Assembly: GCA_002868855.1 (NCBI GenBank)
Contig: PKUM01000054.1
Coordinates: forward strand, 1-61,591
DNA from: Chromatiales bacterium
GTDB lineage: Bacteria; Pseudomonadota; Gammaproteobacteria; Steroidobacterales; BM003
DNA length: 61,591 nucleotides
Direction: 5' to 3'
The notes beneath the pieces are model-generated. The model was given only the letters and a program-made list of their open reading frames with translations. It did no database searches and was not told the DNA's origin. The translations under genes were made by a program, and so were the position numbers. Shown piece after piece: positions 12,284-21,737 of the stretch. Within the stretch, counting starts at the first letter, position 1. The number at the start of each line of letters is the position of its first letter.

Positions 12284-13162
12284 ATGATTAGCAAGTTTTT
12301 CAGGACTGGCGCAACGGCCATTGCCGCTGCTTTGATTGTCGCGGCCTGCGCAAGCGCCAGCATCAGCCTTCCACCGATCACCTCTAAGCCATCCGGGCTG
12401 GAACGGTTCGGGGTTTTCGTGTGGCACGATCTTTTAACGACCGATCCAGATGCGGCCAAGCGCTTCTACGGCGGGCTGTTCGGCTGGGCATTCACGGATT
12501 TCGACGTCGGGCGCGATGGCAGCTACACAGTGATCTATAACGGCGAAACGCCGATTGGCGGGATCGTCGACGCCCGTCAGTTCAATGCCGGCATCAACGT
12601 TTCGCAATGGATTCCGGTGTTGTCCGTAGCCGATGTCGATGCGGCAGTGGCAACGACGCTGGCCGCTGGCGGGCGGACGTTCGCCGACCCGGTAGATATC
12701 GAGGGACGCGGCCGGATGGCGGTCATCGGCGATCCGCAGGGCGCGGTGATGTCACTGTTGCGCTCCGCCTCCGGCGATCCACGTTACGACGATCTCTCGA
12801 TCGGCGGATTTGTCTGGAACGAAATCTGGACCGACAACATTCCAGGCGCGCTGGATTTCTACTCCCGGGTCGCCGGTTACAACCGCGCGCAGGCCAGTAT
12901 CCGCAACGGCGAAACGTATCATTATCTAAGCCAGGCAACCGTGCCGGTTGCCGGTGTGCTGCAGAACCCGATTCCCGACCTGAGAACCAGCTGGGTAAGC
13001 TATATTGGTGTGCGCGATGTCGATGACATTCTGACTCGCGTCGAAGGACTTGGCGGTAGAATTATCGTCGATACGATCGAGATGGCGGGCACCAGCGATG
13101 CCGCCGCAATCGTCGACCCGAGCGGCGCCGGCCTGATGCTGCAGACCTGGCCGCTGAAGTAG
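12284..13162 (+). CDS. Lipoprotein with tandem VOC (glyoxalase/bleomycin-resistance fold) domains
   Basis: Lipobox IVAACAS. Two VOC-like halves: FVWHDLLTTDPDAAKRFYGGLFGW... and FVWNEIWTDNIPGALDFYSRVAGY... Confidence 0.7.
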   Translation: MISKFFRTGATAIAAALIVAACASASISLPPITSKPSGLERFGVFVWHDLLTTDPDAAKRFYGGLFGWAFTDFDVGRDGSYTVIYNGETPIGGIVDARQFNAGINVSQWIPVLSVADVDAAVATTLAAGGRTFADPVDIEGRGRMAVIGDPQGAVMSLLRSASGDPRYDDLSIGGFVWNEIWTDNIPGALDFYSRVAGYNRAQASIRNGETYHYLSQATVPVAGVLQNPIPDLRTSWVSYIGVRDVDDILTRVEGLGGRIIVDTIEMAGTSDAAAIVDPSGAGLMLQTWPLK

Positions 13163-13394: not shown

Positions 13395-13802
13395 ATGAAG
13401 ATCAGGAGATTCATTGCAGTGTTGGCCACCGGTTTGTTGTTTGCGATGGGCGCTCAGGCCCAGGACAGCGTCGGCGCAATGGTTAAAGAAGCTTGCCAGG
13501 CCGATCTCGACAAATACTGCCCGAATGTAAAACCCGGTGAGCAGCGTCTGCTGGCGTGTATCTACGCTCACGAGGACAAGATCTCGAATCGTTGCACCTA
13601 CGCGTTGTACGACGCAGCCATTGCGCTCGAGCGCGCCGTCGCCGGTCTCACCTACGTCGCGCAACAATGCGAAGCCGATATCGAGAAGCTGTGCGGAACA
13701 GTGACCCCTGGCGAGGGTCGGATTCTGGCCTGCCTCGACAGCAAGAAATCCGATGTGTCGGACCTTTGTAAACAAGCCGTGAAAGACGTTATGGCCGACT
13801 AA
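13395..13802 (+). CDS. Secreted cysteine-rich repeat protein (two internal repeats)
   Basis: AAGGAGAAAAAG lies just upstream of the ATG, and there is a signal peptide. Two copies of C.aD..K.C..V.PGE.R.LAC.......S..C are present. Confidence 0.7.
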   Translation: MKIRRFIAVLATGLLFAMGAQAQDSVGAMVKEACQADLDKYCPNVKPGEQRLLACIYAHEDKISNRCTYALYDAAIALERAVAGLTYVAQQCEADIEKLCGTVTPGEGRILACLDSKKSDVSDLCKQAVKDVMAD

Positions 13803-13867: not shown

Positions 13868-14332
13868 ATGAAACAGTTTATTTTGTTCGCAATAGCCGCC
13901 GTATTGCTTTGCGCCTGTGGCGGCGGTGAGCGGGCGGCCAGCGAATCAGGCTCGGCCACAGAAAACAAGGACGCGACGATGTCTGGCAGCGAAACCGAAT
14001 CGGGCCTGGCACAACTGGCCGGCGACTGGACCCTGACCGAGATCATCGGCACCGAACTTCCGGAGGGCGTGCCTGCTCCGAACCTGACGGTTGCCGCGGA
14101 CGGCATGGTCAGTGGCAGGAGCGGCGTGAATCGCTTCACCGGCAAGCTGAGCGACGACTCGGATGTTCTGTTCGGCCCGATGGCAACCACGCGCATGGCC
14201 GGTCCCCCGGCAGCTATGCAACTGGAGGATGCATTCCTGAAAGCCATGACCGAGGCCAGTTCCTACACAGTGAACGGGGACGAACTCGTTATCAGCGCAG
14301 CAAGCGGCCCGCTGCTGCGGTTCGAACGCTGA
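13868..14332 (+). CDS. META (HslJ-like) domain lipoprotein
   Basis: Lipobox LLCACGG. Motifs GDWTLTEI, GRSGVNRFTG, GPMATTRMAG and AMQLEDAFLKAM are typical of META domains. Confidence 0.75.
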   Translation: MKQFILFAIAAVLLCACGGGERAASESGSATENKDATMSGSETESGLAQLAGDWTLTEIIGTELPEGVPAPNLTVAADGMVSGRSGVNRFTGKLSDDSDVLFGPMATTRMAGPPAAMQLEDAFLKAMTEASSYTVNGDELVISAASGPLLRFER

Positions 14333-14333
14333 T

Positions 14334-15308
14334 TCAGCGCGCGGACCTGGCAACGGCGCCGGGTTCGTAGCGTTGCAGTTCTCCGTCCGGTCCGGCTATC
14401 TGCCGCGGCAGGCGCCCTGAATCGATCTGCCGCTCGAAGTCCGGCGCTGCTCGCGCCGAAACACTGACAACGCCGTTGTCGATCTCGATCAGTACAAAAC
14501 TGAACTCCGACTTGATATCCGAGCCGCTGAACCGGCGGATATTGCCCCCTAGTACCCCGGCGCTGACATGCAGCACACCGTTGTCGTCGATACCGGGGTA
14601 AAAAACATGATGATGCCCGCTTACCAGCATGGCGACATCGTGCGCCGCTAGCTGCTGTGCCAACCGAGAGTCGCGTAGTATCTCGGTCTCCCTGCCCTGG
14701 GCAAATGGCCACAACGGAAGATGGCAGAACACAATTCGTGTATCGAAGCGCTCGCCGTGCGCTGCCAGGACTGCCTCCAGGAACTCGCGTTGCGCCATCG
14801 GCAATGGCGACACCGTAGTGACGTCCAGCCCGATGATTAGTACTTTGCCAACGGCGACCGCGTAGTTGAGCGGATACGAATCGGCGGCGACAAACTCGAC
14901 GGCCGGGCGGCGCGTGCTCCACTCGTCGACAAAAATCTCCCGCTCGGCAGCGAAAACCGGATAGGCCGAGCCGTCGTGATTGCCAGGCGTCACCGCCAGC
15001 GGAATGCCGGCAGCGGCCAGTGGATCAGTCACATGCTGATGAAACGATGCCCACATGGCACGCACCTGCTCGCGGCTCAACAACGGCTGGCGTTGGCCAG
15101 CGACCATATCGCCGGCGGACAAAACCACGTCCGGCTGCAATTCAACGATTGCCGCGACAGCCGCATCAACACGTGCATGGTAACGGGTCGAACCATAACT
15201 GCCGTTCAGATCCGTGATTACCGCAATCGTCTCGCCCCGGGCCTGGCCGGCCAGACCGCAGAGCAGGACCGCGGCGACGCCGAACCAGAGGCTAATGTCA
15301 GTTTTCAT
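14334..15308 (-). CDS. Secreted metallophosphoesterase (calcineurin-like)
   Basis: ATG at 15308 (MKTDISLWFGVAAVLLCGLAGQARG). Motifs AGDMV, GNHD and SGHHHVF. The start overlaps the upstream gene's stop by 11 nt. Confidence 0.8.
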   Translation of the reverse strand: MKTDISLWFGVAAVLLCGLAGQARGETIAVITDLNGSYGSTRYHARVDAAVAAIVELQPDVVLSAGDMVAGQRQPLLSREQVRAMWASFHQHVTDPLAAAGIPLAVTPGNHDGSAYPVFAAEREIFVDEWSTRRPAVEFVAADSYPLNYAVAVGKVLIIGLDVTTVSPLPMAQREFLEAVLAAHGERFDTRIVFCHLPLWPFAQGRETEILRDSRLAQQLAAHDVAMLVSGHHHVFYPGIDDNGVLHVSAGVLGGNIRRFSGSDIKSEFSFVLIEIDNGVVSVSARAAPDFERQIDSGRLPRQIAGPDGELQRYEPGAVARSAR

Positions 15309-16788
15309 TTTGCATAGTGTCCAGCTTCTTTCCGGATTCGCAGTCGACGCTGGTTGCGGCAACCTCCCCATCGCGGATCAACAACTCGGGATCGAGGTCA
15401 AACCTGAGTTCGCCCGAGGCGCATTCGTCGCTCAGGATCGCGAATGCTTTTTTGACCTGCCGCGACAAGTGAACGAGATATTTGTCAGACAAGCCAAAGT
15501 TCCGTGCGGTGAACTGGAAGAGTTCACCCTGTTCGGCAAAATCCCGGGACAGCCTTGCAATGCGGCCGTAGAGGTCCGCGTTGAAATGACGCAGCCCATC
15601 AAGCATACCGGTCTTTTCGGCATAATTGACGTAAGCGGAGCGGCCGCCGGCATCGTTGTCGTTGATACGCGAACGCTTTAGACGTAGCGGTGCGTAGGCC
15701 GCGATATCCGCCGGCACCGATGGCTCCGCCGCCAAGCGCGTCATGAACTGTCCGTCCTGCCACCAGTGCCAGAGGAACTGGTAGTCGACGTTGCCGATGC
15801 GATCCTGCTGGTTGAAAAGATAATCCAGCCATACGACCTCGGTCAGTTCCTGCATCCAGAAAGCAACCTGGGCCGGGGCGACAGCACCGTTCAGGGCCCT
15901 CGCCATCTCGGGTTCGGCTCGCGCCTCGGCAATACCGGCGGCGATCGCTTCCGCCAGCGTCCCCTCCGAGCGCAGGGCGATAAACGGTGCGGTCCGTTGA
16001 AAATCGCGCGACTGGCCAACGCCCCAGCCTGACGCTCGCGTGCCATTGATGGCGGCGCCGTAGCGGCTTCCAGCCTCGAGCAACAGCACCCCGTAGACCC
16101 GCGCTGCGTCCGGCGTAATCACTTCGGCGCGATGGCGGTAGGCACCGGGGTCGGAGTCAGCGTCACGCAAGTGACTCCATCCGGCATGGATCATCTTCAG
16201 TTCGCTTCGGTCTGCGGTGAGACGGATTCCGGGTTCAACGACCCGCTCCCGATGCACGACCCGGTCCATGCTGCGGTAAACGGCCACCGGAACCCCGACC
16301 CGGCTCTGCAGGTATCGCGAGAAATGGTAGTAAAGCAGCGAAGATTGCGAATAGGTGGCACTCGTGTCCACCGCATTCATCGATACCTTGTAAATCGCCA
16401 GTTCGCGCCGTGCCGATTTTCGCGCCGAGCCGCCACGGGGGCAGATGTCGCGTTCGAACCCCGACGCATTGTCCTCAAAAGGCGTTTGCGCGATATCGTA
16501 GACCAGCATCGCCGGACTGGTACTCCAGGTCTTGGGGCAAACCGCCGTGTTGGCGGCATAAAAATCGATTTCGCAAAAACGCTGCTCCCACTGCCGGTCG
16601 GACTCGCTGTAAACGGCATCCGGCATATGGGCAAGCGCGATACAACTCTCGGCCGTGTCGCGGGTCGAGACGAACACCGGGCCACTGCCGCCAACGGCTT
16701 CGCTGATCTCCGCCTGCGCCGTCACTGACAACGCCAGCATCACCCAACCTGCCGGTACCAACCGCCGGTGATTGTTTCGCGGTGCCAT
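15298..16788 (-). CDS. Secreted hypothetical protein with atypical (FAM20/four-jointed-like) kinase motifs
   Basis: ATG at 16788 inside track ORF 15298..17118. Signal peptide MAPRNNHRRLVPAGWVMLALSVTAQA and 6 Cys. Motifs AIYKV, YYHFSRYLQSRVGVPVAVYR, LDYLFNQQDRIGNVDY and RINDNDAGG. Confidence 0.6.
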   Translation of the reverse strand: MAPRNNHRRLVPAGWVMLALSVTAQAEISEAVGGSGPVFVSTRDTAESCIALAHMPDAVYSESDRQWEQRFCEIDFYAANTAVCPKTWSTSPAMLVYDIAQTPFEDNASGFERDICPRGGSARKSARRELAIYKVSMNAVDTSATYSQSSLLYYHFSRYLQSRVGVPVAVYRSMDRVVHRERVVEPGIRLTADRSELKMIHAGWSHLRDADSDPGAYRHRAEVITPDAARVYGVLLLEAGSRYGAAINGTRASGWGVGQSRDFQRTAPFIALRSEGTLAEAIAAGIAEARAEPEMARALNGAVAPAQVAFWMQELTEVVWLDYLFNQQDRIGNVDYQFLWHWWQDGQFMTRLAAEPSVPADIAAYAPLRLKRSRINDNDAGGRSAYVNYAEKTGMLDGLRHFNADLYGRIARLSRDFAEQGELFQFTARNFGLSDKYLVHLSRQVKKAFAILSDECASGELRFDLDPELLIRDGEVAATSVDCESGKKLDTMQNEN

Positions 16789-17041
16789 CCACAAGCCCTC
16801 TTTGCCGATCCGGAATCGTTTGCCGCAGAAACTGAATAATACAGCCAGATACGGCAACGTGTTTTCGCGGCGCGAGCCGTCCGCGACTACATTCCTGCGG
16901 CCACCGAAGCGGCGGATCATCAAAACTGCCAACCGCGTCACGGATATCGGAATCGGGATGGCCCAGCATCGAAGCTGGGGTTTTTGCGGGATACAACAAA
17001 TGCTCAATGCGACGTCGATGTTCGGTAACGCCGCGGACATT

Positions 17042-17470
17042 ATGAGTGGCAAGCGGTGCGAGCCACTGCATGAGTTTCTGGATGCATTCGAAGCACGCCC
17101 AAGCAGGGCCCTGGACAACCCGTCAGATCCTGAACTGCCCGCACTGGCCAGTCACGAAAAGCACGAATTCGACTGGAGCGGTTCACGCGTAGGCTCGGTC
17201 GAGGTGATCCACAGTGGCGGCGAACCACTACAGCTCGCGGTCAGCCTGCCCTACCCGAAGCGGCGCTGGTTCTCGCCACGCCGCAAAGACTGGAAGAAGC
17301 TGGCCGATATCGCCGAGGACCGGTTCGGTCCGGGGCAAAAAATCGAGGTCGCCGGCAAAACCGGGCTGCACTTTCGCGAACGCAACCTCCTCGCCCTGAT
17401 CTGCCGCTACGACAACGGCAGCGAGTCGTTTATCGAGGTGAAACTCGCAAGCGGACGATTCTGGCGTTGA
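17042..17470 (+). CDS. Hypothetical protein (start uncertain; alternative ATG at 17000)
   Basis: Only the 3' part of track ORF 16772..17470 lies outside the neighbouring gene. The codon pattern looks coding, but I recognise no motif. Confidence 0.4.
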   Translation: MSGKRCEPLHEFLDAFEARPSRALDNPSDPELPALASHEKHEFDWSGSRVGSVEVIHSGGEPLQLAVSLPYPKRRWFSPRRKDWKKLADIAEDRFGPGQKIEVAGKTGLHFRERNLLALICRYDNGSESFIEVKLASGRFWR

Positions 17471-17644
17471 CCGCGTCGCAAAACCCGGATTAATAGTCTC
17501 CAAATCCCGGTTTTCTTGAGCTATTTCACATATTCCCGCGTGGGACATTCGTACCATCGATGTGCGCAGATGGGCTATATCCGTTTGCCGGGCGGAGATT
17601 GAAGTTTGGTCATCTCCGTTTCGGGCCAGGGAGGCATCCCGGGC

Positions 17645-17725
17645 TGCGACAAAGGCAACCCCGTCGCAAGACGGGGACGCAAAGCCACAGATCTCTGCGA
17701 GGAGATGGCTGGGCTGCCGACAACC
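17645..17725 (+). promoter_or_regulatory. c-di-GMP-I (GEMM-I) riboswitch-like aptamer
   Basis: AAAGGCAACC, then 7-bp hairpin CCCCGTC-GCAA-GACGGGG (17659-17676), then ACGCAAAGCC (17677-17686). A bulged hairpin CAGATCTC...GAGAT(GG)CTG follows at 17688-17711, then GGGCTGCCGA. GGCA (17654-57) can pair with TGCC (17715-18). The element ends 8-10 nt before the GAGG SD of the pilin gene. Confidence 0.7.
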
Positions 17726-17736
17726 TGAGGAAAACA

Positions 17737-18261
17737 ATGAGGATATTTGTCATGACATTTCGTAATCTGTACCGCAAGACTGCCATTGCCCTGGCAGTAA
17801 CGGGTGCCCTGGCCGGTGGACAGGTGATCGCTAACGACACCGATACACTGACGGTCACGGCCGTGGTAGATGCCACCTGCGACATCACCAACGTGGAAGT
17901 GCTCAATTTCGGAACGCTCGACCTGGTCAACGACGCGACTTCGAGTGCTGACATCACCTGGGTGTGCACCAATGGCTTTGACACCACTATCGCTCTGAAC
18001 GGCGGTGGCACCAGCAATATCAACAATCGTAATATGGTGGGCGCGTCGAATGGTGACAGTCTCGTGTACCAGCTCTACACCGATGCCGGCCTCGGTACGG
18101 TGTTCGGCGACGGCGCCAACGGCAGCACCGTTCCCGCGAACGGCGCCGGCTTCGGCAACGCGCAGACCACTACCGTACATGGCCAGGTTCTGGCCAGCGA
18201 TGCCGAGAACGTGTCGGCTGACACTTATAACGACAATGTCACCGTTACGATCACATTCTGA
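17737..18261 (+). CDS. Spore-coat-U (SCPU) domain fimbrial subunit, Csu-type major pilin
   Basis: ATG at 17737 (alternative at 17752). Signal peptide, then TLTVTAVVDATCDITN...DFGT-like start and the C-terminal YNDNVTVTITF typical of SCPU/CsuA-B pilins. Confidence 0.8.
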   Translation: MRIFVMTFRNLYRKTAIALAVTGALAGGQVIANDTDTLTVTAVVDATCDITNVEVLNFGTLDLVNDATSSADITWVCTNGFDTTIALNGGGTSNINNRNMVGASNGDSLVYQLYTDAGLGTVFGDGANGSTVPANGAGFGNAQTTTVHGQVLASDAENVSADTYNDNVTVTITF

Positions 18262-19003
18262 GTACGCGGGCTATTTCGGCCTGAGGAGGGCGGCACACGC
18301 CGCCCTCCTGTTCCTGCTTTGCGTCGGGGCGGCACATAGTGCCTCGGTGCAGGTGGTGCCGGTGCGCGTGGAAATTTCAGCCCAGCGCACAGCCGGCGAG
18401 CTGCGGATTATCAATTCAGGCGACAAACCGGTTTCGATGCAAGTCGATCCGCGTGAGTGGAGTCAGAACGTGGACGGCGTGGATCAGCTTGCGCCGACAG
18501 AGGAATTGCTGGCGGTACCACCGCTTTTTACCATTCCTCCGGGGCGCGATCAGATCGTCCGGCTCGGTCTGCTGGGCCAGCCAAGTCCCACCCACGAGAA
18601 GACCTTTCGCCTGCTGGTCACCGAGCTGGCGCCCGCCTCCGGCGAGCGCGAAGCGTCGGCGGTACGCATTAGATTGCAGCTCAGTATTCCCGTGTTCGTC
18701 GCGCCCAGCGAATCCGAGGCGATCCCCGAACTCGTCGTCGAGGACACCCGGATCGGCGCGGATGGCGTCATCGTTACGCTACGCAACACAGGCAATACCC
18801 ACGTCAAGCTCAAGCAGCTTTCCGTCGCAGCCAGCGGCGGCGACATGCCCGATGACGGGCGCAGCGGCAAGGGCCGCTACCTGCTCCCTGGAACGAGCGC
18901 CGAGATCTTCGTCCCCGGTCAACTGACCGGAGCCTTGCGGAGTGTCCGCATAGAAACCGAAGACGGGTGGAGCCGGGAGCATGCCGTGGCGCCTGACAAA
19001 TAG
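18236..19003 (+). CDS. Fimbrial periplasmic chaperone (PapD/CsuC-like)
   Basis: In-frame ATG at 18236 within track ORF 18005..19003. Signal peptide ...RRAAHAALLFLLCVGAAHSA. Motifs VQVVPVRVEI, RIINSGDKPV, LFTIPPGRDQIVRL and FRLLVTEL. The start is uncertain. Confidence 0.75.
   Translation: MSPLRSHSEYAGYFGLRRAAHAALLFLLCVGAAHSASVQVVPVRVEISAQRTAGELRIINSGDKPVSMQVDPREWSQNVDGVDQLAPTEELLAVPPLFTIPPGRDQIVRLGLLGQPSPTHEKTFRLLVTELAPASGEREASAVRIRLQLSIPVFVAPSESEAIPELVVEDTRIGADGVIVTLRNTGNTHVKLKQLSVAASGGDMPDDGRSGKGRYLLPGTSAEIFVPGQLTGALRSVRIETEDGWSREHAVAPDK
18284..18309 (+). promoter_or_regulatory. Intercistronic 11-bp GC hairpin between the pilin and chaperone genes
   Basis: AGGAGGGCGGC-ACAC-GCCGCCCTCCT is a perfect stem. 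It lies 23 nt after the pilin stop and within the predicted chaperone signal-peptide codons. Confidence 0.6.
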
Positions 19004-21737
19004 CCTGGGCCTGGCGGTCATTCTGTTGCTGCTGCTCACACACCGATGCGCGGGTAGCACGGACACCCCGGCGACTTCGCACACGCCGGTACCGGCGGTC
19101 GGAGAGAACGCAATAATGCTCACCCCGCATGGCGCCGCGCAGCCGGAACAGGCAGCTCAACCATCGCCGGCTGGTGAATCGGCCGCGGTGTATCCGGGCG
19201 CCAACGCAGAGCAGACCCGCGATTCAGAATTACCGGCATCTGCCGAAGCGAGCGAGCCCGCGCCCACGCATGGCGAAGGTCCCGCTAGCGAAAACGCGCC
19301 GGCTACAGAATTCGTTACATCCGTTCAGGCAGGCACCGACGTGCCCGTACAGGCGCCAGCCGCCGATTCACTTGATACCGAAACGTTCACCGCGTCGCTT
19401 TCGCCTGCCACGGTTGGGTCCCGGTTGACGTTTACCCAGTCTCCTGCCGAGCTGGTCAGCGAGCAGGAACAGCTGCTGTTCCTCGATGTAGAAGTCAACG
19501 GGGTCGGCCAGGGGACCACTCTGCTGCTGGCGGACGCGGCCGGCCAGGTGTTTGCCACGGCCGAGACCCTCAACGACTGGGGCGTCAAACCACCGTACCC
19601 GGCCGCGGTGGAACATGCTGGCCGGCGATTCCATGAATTCAGCGCTATTCCCGGCGTGCTGGTGGCGATGGAATCCTCGAGCATGAGTGCCGAGGTCAGC
19701 ATTCCGCCGCAATACATGTCGAATACGACGCTCTCATTGAGCCGCGACGATGCCCCTGCACCGGTTTCGGATTCCGGTGCGTTCGTCGATTACCAGGCCG
19801 CGTACACCGATGACGGCGGCGCCAATGCCAGACTGTTCTCGAGCGTTTTCGAGCCGACGATGTTCACCCCGCAGGGGACGCTGACCAGCGGGTCGCTGTA
19901 CCGCTGGTCGGACTACGATTATCGGGATTTCGAGGATGAAGACTACTTCGACGAGCGCGACGATCCGATCGAAGACGGCTGGATCCGCCTCGATTCGACC
20001 TGGACCCGCGACGATCCCGACAAAATACGCACATTCAAAATAGGTGATACGATCACACCGCAGAGCAGCTGGGCGCGCTCGGTCCGGTTTGGCGGGATCC
20101 AGCTGGCCACCAATTTCGCGACCCGCCCGAGCATGGTGACGTTCCCGCGACCGTCGTTCAGCAGTTCCTCGGCCGTACCGACCGCGCTCGATCTGTATGT
20201 CAACGGAAACCTCAGGTCCCGGCAGAATTTCCCGGACGGCACGTTCCGCATTGACGACATACCAGTGGTGAATGGCGCCGGCCAGATAGAGGTTGTCACC
20301 CGCGACCTGCTCGGCCGCGAAACGACAGTGACCCAGGACTTTTACGCCAGCGACCAGTTGTTGCTGCCCGGATTGAACGACTATGCACTGAGCGCGGGAT
20401 TTCTGCGCAAGAACTACGCGGTCAAAAGCAATGATTACGGCGATCCGTACGCCAGCGCGATATTGCGCCGCGGTATTCGCGAGAATCTGACTGTCGACGG
20501 CCGTCTCGAAACGACGGATGAAACCGTCGTCGCTGGCGCCGGTGCGGTTTTTTCACTAAACCGCTATGGGACATTCTCGGCCAGCGCGGCTTTCAGCGGC
20601 GGCGACGACAGCGGCGCACTGTGGCGCATCGGCCAGGATTATCGCGGTCGCAAATACCGCTTCAGCAGCCAGCTGCAGGGCACCAGCAGCGGCTTCACCC
20701 AGCCCGGTCTCGATATCGACTCGGGACTGCCAAAACTCCGGACACTACTGGGAAGTGGTGTCAGTCTCGGCGGGTTGGGCTCGATCGGCCTGACACTCGT
20801 CAATGAGACTTTTCACCGCGACGAAGACTCGCGCACGGTAATGAGTGCAAGCTACAGCCGCACGTTGCCGAGCCGAATCGCTTTTTCATTCTCGGCAAGT
20901 TACGTCGAGCAGGACGGCAGCGATCTCCAGGCAAGCCTGCTGTTCAGCAAATCGCTGGGGCCGCGCCGCAGCACCTCGGCAGCGCTCAACCTCAGCGACG
21001 ACGACAGCAACCTGCGTCTCGACTTTCGTCATGACCTGCCGTCCGGACCGGGTTACGGATACCGCCTGACCAGCTACAGCGGCGACTCGGAAGGCGTCGA
21101 GTCGGAGGCCTCGCTGAATACGGCTGGCGCACGCTATCGCGGCCAGGTCCGGCACCGCGACGGCGAGTACGGCTGGCGTGCGGAAATGACCGGCTCGCTG
21201 GCCTGGCTCGACGGTGAAACCTACGCCAATCGCGAGATTCGCGACGGCTTTGCCGTCATCGATACAGGTGGATACTCCGGTGTCACCGTCTTCCAGGAGA
21301 ACCGGGAAATCGGCGTCACCGACAAACGCGGTCGCCTGCTCGTGCCAAACCTGCGCCCCTACCAGGCCAACCGGCTGCATATCGCGGCCGAGGACTTGCC
21401 GCTCAATGCACGCACCTCGAGCTACAGCGCGGTTGTCGCCCCATACTATCGTTCCGGTGTGCTGATCGATCTCGGTGTGCGTCCGGCCCAGGCCGCCATC
21501 CTGCGGGTCGTCGACGCGGCCGGCGAGCCGGTCCCGGAGGGCGCCCAGGCGGGCATAGCCGACACGCCGGAACGCTACCCGGTCGGTCTCGATGGCCGTC
21601 TCTACATTGAAGGTCTGGGCGAGAACAGCCGCGTAGTCATTCGCCACGCCGGGGCTGAGTGCGAAATCGAGCTGCCACGGCCGGATCCGAACAAAGCGTT
21701 ACCCGACCTTGGCGAGTTCGTTTGCAACGGACTCTGA
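18981..21737 (+). CDS. Fimbrial outer-membrane usher (CsuD-like) with a long N-terminal low-complexity extension
   Basis: 918 aa. Signal peptide MPWRLTNSLGLAVILLLLLTHRCAG. Size and position (after the chaperone, overlapping it by 23 nt) fit an usher, and the beta-rich body has Y/G/S/D-rich segments. Confidence 0.75.
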   Translation: MPWRLTNSLGLAVILLLLLTHRCAGSTDTPATSHTPVPAVGENAIMLTPHGAAQPEQAAQPSPAGESAAVYPGANAEQTRDSELPASAEASEPAPTHGEGPASENAPATEFVTSVQAGTDVPVQAPAADSLDTETFTASLSPATVGSRLTFTQSPAELVSEQEQLLFLDVEVNGVGQGTTLLLADAAGQVFATAETLNDWGVKPPYPAAVEHAGRRFHEFSAIPGVLVAMESSSMSAEVSIPPQYMSNTTLSLSRDDAPAPVSDSGAFVDYQAAYTDDGGANARLFSSVFEPTMFTPQGTLTSGSLYRWSDYDYRDFEDEDYFDERDDPIEDGWIRLDSTWTRDDPDKIRTFKIGDTITPQSSWARSVRFGGIQLATNFATRPSMVTFPRPSFSSSSAVPTALDLYVNGNLRSRQNFPDGTFRIDDIPVVNGAGQIEVVTRDLLGRETTVTQDFYASDQLLLPGLNDYALSAGFLRKNYAVKSNDYGDPYASAILRRGIRENLTVDGRLETTDETVVAGAGAVFSLNRYGTFSASAAFSGGDDSGALWRIGQDYRGRKYRFSSQLQGTSSGFTQPGLDIDSGLPKLRTLLGSGVSLGGLGSIGLTLVNETFHRDEDSRTVMSASYSRTLPSRIAFSFSASYVEQDGSDLQASLLFSKSLGPRRSTSAALNLSDDDSNLRLDFRHDLPSGPGYGYRLTSYSGDSEGVESEASLNTAGARYRGQVRHRDGEYGWRAEMTGSLAWLDGETYANREIRDGFAVIDTGGYSGVTVFQENREIGVTDKRGRLLVPNLRPYQANRLHIAAEDLPLNARTSSYSAVVAPYYRSGVLIDLGVRPAQAAILRVVDAAGEPVPEGAQAGIADTPERYPVGLDGRLYIEGLGENSRVVIRHAGAECEIELPRPDPNKALPDLGEFVCNGL

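Follow-up and report, generated by a model that had tools for sequence, protein, structure and literature searches.

A predicted exported Fam20-like kinase-fold protein encoded in a conserved bacterial gene pair with a metallophosphoesterase

Phosphorylation by Fam20 kinases, whether extracellular or luminal, is regarded as a trait of eukaryotes and chiefly of metazoans, and the bacterial periplasm as free of ATP and of kinases. A pair of overlapping genes in contig PKUM01000054.1 from a Chromatiales bacterium (61,591 nucleotides (nt); this whole stretch is referred to below as the window) raises the question of whether bacteria might carry out such phosphorylation as well. The upstream gene, here called gene A, encodes a 496-amino acid (aa) protein of an unannotated family. 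The downstream gene, gene B, encodes a 324-aa metallophosphoesterase. Both products are predicted to be exported. We found that the gene A product has its only credible structural counterparts in the Fam20 group and that the two genes are kept together in bacteria of four phyla. We consider it very likely that the fold assignment and the conserved module are both correct.

Fold and conserved residues of the gene A product

Gene A belongs to a large and unannotated family. Searches of Pfam (E ≤ 1), of NCBIfam and, with phmmer and hmmsearch, of the sequences of PDB chains gave no assignment for the protein, in agreement with a first-pass annotation of the window, which had recognised no standard domain in it. 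Similarly, 48 relatives gave zero matches to the Fam20C, CotH, HipA, PI3/4K and Pkinase models even at E ≤ 10. A word-seeded search identified more than 860 clusters of homologues at 90% identity. Few of these clusters bear a source name, every named public member is described as "hypothetical", and none of the full-length homologues among the matches listed carries a Pfam domain. An exhaustive search of 1.84 billion representative sequences with a hidden Markov model yielded 592 clusters (50% identity) at a threshold of E ≤ 1e-3, of which 466 also passed E ≤ 1e-10. When about 186,000 species genomes were scanned with the close alignment, 241 were found to encode a member. The carriers include Gammaproteobacteria (Chromatiaceae, Steroidobacteraceae, Halieaceae and Competibacteraceae), Rhodobacteraceae (Ruegeria, Shimia, Rhodovulum, Sulfitobacter and others), Betaproteobacteria, Desulfobulbaceae, Acidobacteriota and Gemmatimonadota. 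Thus far the family comes from Gram-negative lineages, in four phyla.

The alignment of the wide family, which extends down to 24% identity, reveals a restricted set of conserved positions. The protein contains exactly six cysteines, as the first-pass annotation had counted (C49, C72, C84, C116, C456 and C483), and all six are invariant. Together with the leader peptide described below, they fit a protein residing in an oxidising compartment. The other invariant residues are Y153, W204, G233, D322, R330 and D464, and conservation reaches at least 90% at K134, Y154, R158, P167, R172, Q327, D329, G332, N333, D377, N378, D379, N388 and H401. The four motifs singled out in the first-pass annotation thus coincide with the conserved core of the family. 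Invariant residues of the close family include three glutamates, E47, E68 and E112.

A model of the protein was obtained with AlphaFold2 from the 48-sequence alignment, with a predicted local distance difference test score (pLDDT) of 91.9 and a predicted template modelling score (pTM) of 0.89. Its elements succeed each other in the following order: strand 128-135, bearing K134; helix 148-159; strand 169-175; a helical insertion; strand 230-236; a long αE-like helix (305-325); the QQDRIGN loop; a β-hairpin; strand 368-374; the NDND motif; and C-terminal helices. In the model, this order is that of a protein-kinase-like core, and the placement of strand 368-374 ahead of the NDND motif is itself a kinase-like arrangement. 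Comparison with the PDB by Foldseek assigned the model a Fam20-type protein-kinase-like fold. The best nine matches are all Fam20 proteins, with probabilities of 0.97-1.0, and include C. elegans Fam20 (4kqb, 4kqa), zebrafish Fam20C1 (DrFam20C1, 5yh0) and human Fam20A (5wrs, 5wrr). E-values for these matches range from 4e-3 to 2e-2 and template modelling (TM) scores from 0.34 to 0.48 over 420-460 columns, at approximately 10% identity. After the ninth match, E-values exceed 0.6 and the proteins are mostly unrelated, with scattered aminoglycoside, steroid and PI3 kinases among them; the best 50 matches include no CotH or HipA structure. Of the folds considered as candidates (Fam20, CotH, HipA, PI3/4K), Fam20C and Fam20A are the only credible ones, the others offering no competitor.

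The relationship was further assessed by profile-profile alignment. The Fam20 profile was built from 22 sequences: human FAM20C, the PDB sequences of Fam20A and of the zebrafish and C. elegans proteins, and invertebrate Fam20 proteins (19 added, all annotated PF06702). Aligned to it with hhalign, the wide gene A family gave an E-value of 2.9e-4, a score of 39.2 and a probability of 40% over 304 colinear columns. The reversed Fam20 profile scored 13.1 and an unrelated profile, that of the gene B family, 17.2. Forty column-shuffled Fam20 profiles scored 15.4±2.1, with a maximum of 21.8, which places the real score some 11 standard deviations above the shuffles. The profile likeness is therefore significant against the controls, yet lies under the usual confidence for homology. 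The 304-column alignment required both the wide-family profile and the deeper Fam20 profile: the close-family profile aligned to FAM20C alone recovered just the LDYLFNQQDR/FDFLMGNMDR segment, with negligible probability.

The first-pass annotation had drawn four motif pairings between the 496-aa protein and Fam20C. All four were reproduced, colinearly and far above the controls, in the profile-profile alignment (FAM20C residues are numbered on a kinase-domain reference 100% identical to PDB 5yh3 chain C). The AIYK sequence pairs with ALFK(PM), so that K134 falls on K285, the ATP-binding β3 lysine, as had been suspected for AIYKV. The segment YYHFSRYLQSRVGVPVAVYR, recovered both as a local match (P 6.9e-4) and in the global alignments, brings H155 and R158 onto H316 and R319 of the FHLDR motif. 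In the catalytic loop, LDYLFNQQDRIGNVDY aligns with FDFLMGNMDRH and D329 with the catalytic aspartate, D458. Finally, D377-N378 correspond to D478-N479, the metal-binding motif. The DRxxN and DND residues, on whose conservation the kinase assignment had been made to depend, are conserved across the whole gene A family. C456 is the sole cysteine that aligns with a Fam20 cysteine.

Gene B and the conservation of the pair

Gene B had been taken for a calcineurin-like phosphoesterase, and this identification proved sound. The protein matches Pfam Metallophos (PF00149) with an E-value of 2e-12 (48.3 bits, for a cut-off of 21.5) and carries the full set of dinuclear metal ligands: D33, N35, D67, N110, H111, H196, H232 and H234, all invariant in the family. 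Its AlphaFold2 model has a pLDDT of 93.1. The best Foldseek match is 1war (E 2.5e-12), followed by 6gj9, 1ute, 3d03 and 5fc1 (E 1e-12 to 1e-10). By protein, the closest structures (E 2.5e-12 to 5e-10) are purple acid phosphatases of mammals and plants, the purple acid phytase of wheat, GpdQ and SMPDL3A/B.

The pairing of the two genes was examined in 87 related loci plus the window (88 in all), using open reading frames of at least 80 aa and all-against-all BLASTP clustering. The metallophosphoesterase cluster is present in 79 of the 88 loci, across the four phyla. In 69 of them the gene lies immediately downstream from the kinase-like gene on the same strand, either overlapping it or less than 300 nt away; in the rest, the two genes are divergent or up to about 5 kb apart. 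With the upstream-most start, the commonest spacing is an 11-nt overlap, just as in the window. In six of the nine loci lacking the metallophosphoesterase, the contig runs out about 1 kb or less downstream from the kinase-like gene, and in a seventh (L010) the contig ends inside a TLC gene (see below). One member of a distant subfamily, 24-27% identical to gene A, also has an adjacent metallophosphoesterase. These findings answer the question of whether the pairing extends to other genomes: genes A and B are a conserved two-gene unit. The gene B family is about equal to the gene A family in size and divergence, consistent with co-inheritance of the two.

The position of the relevant features is given in Table 1. 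The frame of gene A is open further upstream, to a TTG at 17118 (606 aa; extra stretch 16789-17118, minus strand), and public gene calls for the same sequence include 540-aa as well as 496-aa versions. The ATG at 16788, and hence the 496-aa product first reported, is favoured because of the GAGGG Shine-Dalgarno sequence, the 496-aa public calls and the homologues, whose N-termini coincide with this start and carry a hydrophobic leader. For gene B, an identical 324-aa product starting at 15308 is annotated by NCBI ("metallophosphoesterase [Chromatiales bacterium]"; P0270). The junction reads ...CAAAATGAAAACTGACATT..., with the gene A stop codon (TGA) at 15300-15298 and the gene B start codon (ATG) at 15308-15306. 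The 11-nt overlap, ATGAAAACTGA, is that described initially, and suggests translational coupling. Scans for sigma-70 promoters and intrinsic terminators gave matches at chance level only.

Signal peptides had been claimed for both proteins, and the present data speak for them. The N-termini, MAPRNNHRRLVPAGWVMLALSVTAQA/E for gene A and MKTDISLWFGVAAVLLCGLAGQARG/E for gene B (the slash marks the predicted cleavage), show positive charge, then a hydrophobic run, then a small-residue cleavage site. They were scored with a heuristic combining hydrophobicity and an AxA site rather than with SignalP or another trained predictor. Comparable leaders are found in most relatives (36/48, 39/45 and 36/39 across three alignments, the last being that of gene B relatives), and at least some of the sequences that lack one (e.g., P0002 and P0008) resemble N-terminally truncated gene calls. 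Both products are thus predicted to leave the cytoplasm.

Table 1. Position of the gene pair, its sequence elements and examples of genes recurring in related loci.
Feature	Sequence	Position	Strand	Description
Gene A	Window	15298..16788	-	496 aa; predicted exported Fam20-like atypical kinase-fold protein, unannotated family
Gene B	Window	14334..15308	-	324 aa; predicted exported dinuclear metallophosphoesterase
Predicted Sec signal peptide, gene A	Window	16711..16788	-	Residues 1-26, cleavage after AQA; hydrophobicity heuristic
Predicted Sec signal peptide, gene B	Window	15234..15308	-	Residues 1-25; sequence and heuristic
Shine-Dalgarno GAGGG	Window	16796..16800	-	7 nt 5' of gene A ATG; sequence read
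Gene A/gene B overlap ATGAAAACTGA	Window	15298..15308	-	11 nt; sequence read
AIYKV	Window	16384..16398	-	Gene A residues 131-135; strand with K134, aligned to FAM20C K285
YYHFSRYLQSRVGVPVAVYR	Window	16273..16332	-	Residues 153-172; αC-to-β4 segment aligned to FAM20C counterpart (hhalign)
LDYLFNQQDRIGNVDY	Window	15781..15828	-	Residues 321-336; catalytic-loop motif, D329 on FAM20C D458
RINDNDAGG	Window	15643..15669	-	Residues 374-382; DFG-equivalent metal-binding motif, D377-N378 on FAM20C D478-N479
PTP-like gene	L078	6313-6957	+	
PTP-like gene	L001	5305-5988	+	
PTP-like gene	L088	2119-2922	-	
TLC gene	L037	9431-10795	+	Haliea sp. E17
TLC gene	L066	9468-10805	+	
TLC gene	L011	8353-10071	+	
TLC gene	L086	6199-7563	+	
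SDF-solute-binding fusion	L005	1410-3602	+	
SDF-solute-binding fusion	L004	1931-4138	-	
SDF-solute-binding fusion	L019			
SDF-solute-binding fusion	L039			

Additional genes accompany the pair in subsets of the related loci. A secreted protein of about 215 aa resembling protein tyrosine phosphatases (PTP-like) is encoded immediately upstream from the kinase-like gene, on the same strand, in 34 of the 88 loci. It gives weak matches to DSPc, Y_phosphatase and PTP-SAK (E 0.02-0.08), has several conserved cysteines, and in its motif, HCxWGxHxSG, the signature arginine is replaced. A homologue (BLASTP about 1e-22) is found beside a member of the distant gene A subfamily. A transporter of the TLC/NTT type is contiguous with the pair in 14 loci from Gamma- and Betaproteobacteria, Acidobacteriota and Gemmatimonadota; the order is kinase-metallophosphoesterase-TLC or kinase-TLC-metallophosphoesterase, or else the TLC gene is upstream. 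Matches of the transporter to PF03219 reach an E-value of 2e-13, with three of the five examples scanned above the gathering score and two at or just below it; against TIGR00769 ("NTP/NDP exchange transporter") it scores 30 bits, for a cut-off of 387. A fusion of about 730 aa, joining an SDF (dicarboxylate/amino-acid:cation symporter) domain to a family-3 solute-binding protein, recurs in 23 loci, and β-propeller proteins of the SdiA-regulated/Phytase-like type lie near the module in 27. A membrane protein weakly resembling DUF4956 (E 0.003, below the Pfam cut-off) is encoded in 27 Rhodobacteraceae loci (e.g., L064, 4891-5676, minus strand). Lastly, a protein of the VTC polyphosphate-polymerase type (E 3e-45) is encoded convergently to a distant gene A relative (L088, 4447-5232, minus strand); the 88 main-family loci contained no VTC domain. 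By tblastn, TLC-, PTP-, DUF4956-, SdiA-regulated-like and SDF-solute-binding genes are all absent from the 61.6-kb window.

Other neighbours are more variable. Some of the gammaproteobacterial loci recurrently contain genes resembling class A β-lactamases, and some a PLD-like gene. When the long members of the gene A family were scanned for domain fusions, a single domain was detected, a bacterial SH3 domain (SH3_3, E 9e-8) at the C-terminus of a 653-aa member (P0213). In locus L004, genes with SH3_3 and YkuD (L,D-transpeptidase) domains are found directly upstream; the two observations give a faint hint of a cell-wall context.

In the window, a chaperone-usher cluster lies upstream from gene A (17560-21737, plus strand, and beyond). 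It encodes a secreted SCPU (spore coat U) subunit, a PapD-like chaperone and a 918-aa usher, and is found again at the locus of a close metagenome-assembled genome (L007). On the other side of the pair, a convergent gene (13868-14332, plus strand) encodes a 154-aa protein with a lipobox-like leader (LLCAC), whose L007 orthologue has a META domain (PF03724). Farther from the pair lie genes for a 135-aa secreted cysteine-rich protein (13395-13802, plus strand; weak Cys_rich_FGFR match in the L007 orthologue) and for a 292-aa secreted protein with faint glyoxalase-fold matches (12284-13162, plus strand), both conserved in the closest relatives only. Around the module, small secreted proteins of several mutually unrelated kinds (META, PliI-like) are frequent and form no clean conserved family. 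One cluster of neighbouring open reading frames, represented in 54 loci ("cluster 3", which includes the META lipoprotein gene of the window), was rejected as part of the module, since it mixes assorted secreted proteins with antisense reading frames.

Proposed function and its alternatives

We propose that the two genes make up an operon devoted to phospho-ester chemistry outside the cytoplasm. Because K134, D329/N333 and D377/D379 are kept, the gene A product is most likely an active phosphotransferase dependent on a divalent cation (Mn2+/Mg2+). It would transfer phosphate to a hydroxyl group of a protein or glycan in the periplasm or at the cell surface. The gene B product is most likely an active exported phospho-mono- or diesterase. 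It would act either as an eraser, removing the phosphate installed by gene A, or on the nucleotide by-product of the reaction; enzymes of the SMPDL3A and purple acid phosphatase types hydrolyse nucleotides. As to the donor, a TLC-type exchanger is a plausible source of periplasmic ATP in the relatives that have one: NTP/NDP exchange could bring ATP to this compartment by analogy with the lumen of the endoplasmic reticulum (ER) and Golgi. We estimate at about 0.6 the probability of this explanation as a whole, that is, a new bacterial exported and active phosphotransferase of the Fam20/CotH clade with a functionally coupled phosphoesterase. Its more specific versions are tentative. The odds are somewhat against a true writer/eraser cycle. 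A Gram-negative system for phosphorylation in the periplasm or at the surface, comprising a writer, erasers (the metallophosphoesterase and often the PTP-like protein) and sometimes a TLC exchanger running in the export direction, is in our opinion similarly conjectural.

Several points weigh against the proposal. No sequence model for Fam20 (PF06702), CotH or any other kinase matches gene A, the hhalign probability with Fam20 is only 40%, and the Foldseek matches combine modest TM scores (0.34-0.48) with a best E-value of only about 4e-3. The hhalign alignment provides no counterpart for the αC glutamate: the Fam20 segment FYFSDYERHN, with E306 and E311, falls in a gap, and the gene A helix at 148-159 has no acidic residue in this alignment. 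The Lys-Glu pair may be absent or else supplied from elsewhere, for example by the invariant E47, E68 or E112. In the catalytic loop, the asparagine is found at position D+4 (DRIGN) instead of D+5. By the common view, ATP is absent from the periplasm, and no TLC-like transporter is encoded in the window. Finally, the activity, the substrate and the localisation of the gene A product are all predictions, the signal peptides having been scored by heuristic.

The lack of an αC glutamate counterpart in the alignment and the unusual spacing of the DRIGN loop also lend themselves to a different interpretation, namely that the gene A product uses its kinase-like fold for another chemistry. It could be a pseudokinase or scaffold, a nucleotidyl or other transferase such as an AMPylase (SelO-like) or a glutamylase (SidJ-like), or an enzyme using polyphosphate or pyrophosphate as donor, in which case gene B would process the donor or its product. 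Kinase-fold proteins with alternative chemistries are on record (KINtaro paper, PMC10870513), and the VTC gene beside a distant member, along with the DUF4956-like protein of Rhodobacteraceae, echoes the CotH-VTC-DUF4956 set. Family-wide retention of the Lys, Asp/Asn and Asp set makes a dead scaffold unlikely, however. A nucleotide donor is indicated by the 14 operons that include a TLC-type NTP/NDP exchanger, and the VTC domain is missing from the 88 main-family loci. We regard another chemistry as unlikely overall, though it deserves to be kept in mind.

Less probable still is a role of the locus in scavenging organophosphates or inositol phosphates, with gene B and its neighbours performing catalysis and gene A encoding an accessory binding or remodelling protein. 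Phytases exist among purple acid phosphatases, PTP-like proteins and β-propellers alike. Wheat purple acid phytase and the glycerophosphodiesterase GpdQ figure among the best structural matches of gene B. Recurrent neighbours of the module include PTP-like proteins in 34 loci, SdiA-regulated/Phytase-like β-propellers in 27 and the SDF-solute-binding fusion in 23. Against this, the PTP-like protein lacks the signature arginine, and the Pfam Phytase-like match of the β-propellers is weaker than that to the SdiA-regulated family, which is functionally uncharacterised. Moreover, scavenging would leave the conserved kinase catalytic set of gene A without obvious use, and the tightest and most widespread link in these loci, translationally coupled, is that between the kinase-like and metallophosphoesterase genes.

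It is very improbable that the Fam20 likeness is a modelling or alignment artefact, or due to chance, and that gene A encodes an unrelated secreted protein. The TM scores below 0.5, the Foldseek E-value of about 4e-3, the hhalign probability of 40% and the absence of a Pfam match speak for this possibility. Nevertheless, two independent approaches, the 3Di structure search and sequence profiles, agree on the family and on the residue equivalences. The nine best structural matches are all Fam20 and are followed by a sharp fall to noise; the profile score stands about 11 standard deviations above the shuffles; and the positions brought into register are precisely those that the family conserves best. 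The least credible alternative, a CAMK-type Hanks register in the C-terminal region of gene A (about 360-470) with D464, invariant in the wide family, as the catalytic residue, draws on a resemblance of GELFQF...LS...LRFDLDPE to the β3-to-catalytic-loop sequence GELFDYL...LSE...HRDLKPEN and on matches of the same region to phosphorylase kinase γ (E 0.0087) and DAPK3 (E 0.43), and was rejected since these E-values are marginal, the approximately 30 residues following the supposed catalytic loop leave no room for a DFG motif or activation segment, and the region forms C-terminal helices in the model, which hhalign places on the C-terminal helices of Fam20 including the shared cysteine.

Should the conjectured Gram-negative phosphorylation system exist, it would be the prokaryotic equivalent of the Fam20 secretory-pathway kinases of eukaryotes and might be their evolutionary source, and the working assumption that no ATP-dependent phosphorylation takes place in the periplasm would be overturned. 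The family offers a testable entry to two questions, regulated extracytoplasmic phosphorylation in bacteria and the origin of secretory-pathway kinases. Experiments are feasible in cultivable carriers such as Ruegeria, Rhodovulum, Shimia and Haliea. If gene A should turn out to be inactive or to perform other chemistry, it would still define a new kinase-fold family with a strongly conserved partner. In the literature consulted, neither a bacterial Fam20-like family nor a comparable periplasmic kinase is described, and the same holds for an operon pairing an exported kinase with a phosphatase. We conclude that gene A represents a new bacterial family, probably within the Fam20/CotH branch of kinase-like proteins, set in a new and strongly conserved operon context.

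Comparison with known families

Among the partners of gene A, the operon transporter of the relatives is a distant member of the TLC/NTT exchangers (PF03219, TIGR00769; TC 2.A.12), whose known representatives import host ATP into obligate intracellular bacteria and plastids. Gene B shares the metallophosphoesterase fold and the full ligand set with purple acid phosphatases and phytases, GpdQ and SMPDL3A/B, secreted enzymes acting on phospho-mono- or diesters or nucleotides. Its identity to purple acid phosphatases and related enzymes is only 15-20%, and its motif 1 is D-x-N. Motif 2 reads GDMVAGQ (with GDMVAG at G66-G71 and A70 invariant) and lacks the tyrosine ligand of GDxxY, which is diagnostic of purple acid phosphatases and gives rise to their Fe(III)-tyrosinate chromophore. 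Hence, gene B is not a purple acid phosphatase sensu stricto, though its fold is closest to theirs.

Gene A differs from Hanks kinases (PF00069) in having no Pfam match and no complete VAIK Lys/HRD/DFG order. Residues from about 360 to 470 (15379-15708, minus strand) give marginal profile matches to phosphorylase kinase γ (E 0.009) and DAPK3 (E 0.43), a CAMK-like similarity that is probably due to chance.

With CotH (PF08757), gene A has in common that it is a bacterial kinase-fold protein found beyond the normal context of cytoplasmic signalling. CotH is the bacterial relative of Fam20, the two making up the FAM20/CotH group (PMC9758233). In addition, the VTC neighbour of the distant gene A relative and the weak DUF4956-like protein recall the published set of CotH, polyphosphate polymerase (VTC) and DUF4956 genes (bioRxiv 10.1101/768473). 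In contrast, gene A has no PF08757 match, no CotH chain appears in its best 50 Foldseek matches, and its conserved partner is a metallophosphoesterase, where that of CotH is VTC/DUF4956. The gene A family is found in Gram-negative lineages, with predicted Sec leaders.

The comparison with Fam20 is the closest. The Fam20 set comprises Fam20C, a Golgi casein kinase, Fam20B, a xylosylkinase, and the pseudokinase Fam20A, with protein and glycan substrates. Fam20 is the only credible structural match of gene A, with which it shares the coincident β3 lysine and αC-β4 H..R residues, the catalytic aspartate in a (D/N)xDR loop following an LDYL/FDFL helix, and the metal-binding DN motif. Proteins of both families are cysteine-rich and exported or luminal, in the case of gene A by prediction. 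A nucleotide exchanger adjoins the gene A homologues in some relatives, and in eukaryotes the kinases of the ER and Golgi lumen rely on ATP imported by ATP/ADP exchange. The differences lie in the loop, QQDRIGNxD in gene A and NMDRHHYE in Fam20, and in the cysteines: the conserved Fam20 pattern consists of four disulfides (PMC5865150), whereas gene A lacks this pattern and has six invariant cysteines, of which one, C456, can be aligned. Gene A is moreover bacterial and in an operon with a phosphoesterase, whereas a survey of Legionella, human and amoeba kinomes placed the FAM20 cluster among those specific to eukaryotes or Metazoa (PMC9758233). Because it has no Pfam match, no αC glutamate counterpart in the alignment and a disulfide pattern of its own, gene A falls outside the Fam20 family as defined by sequence model and disulfides; it is Fam20-like, and probably a distant relative.

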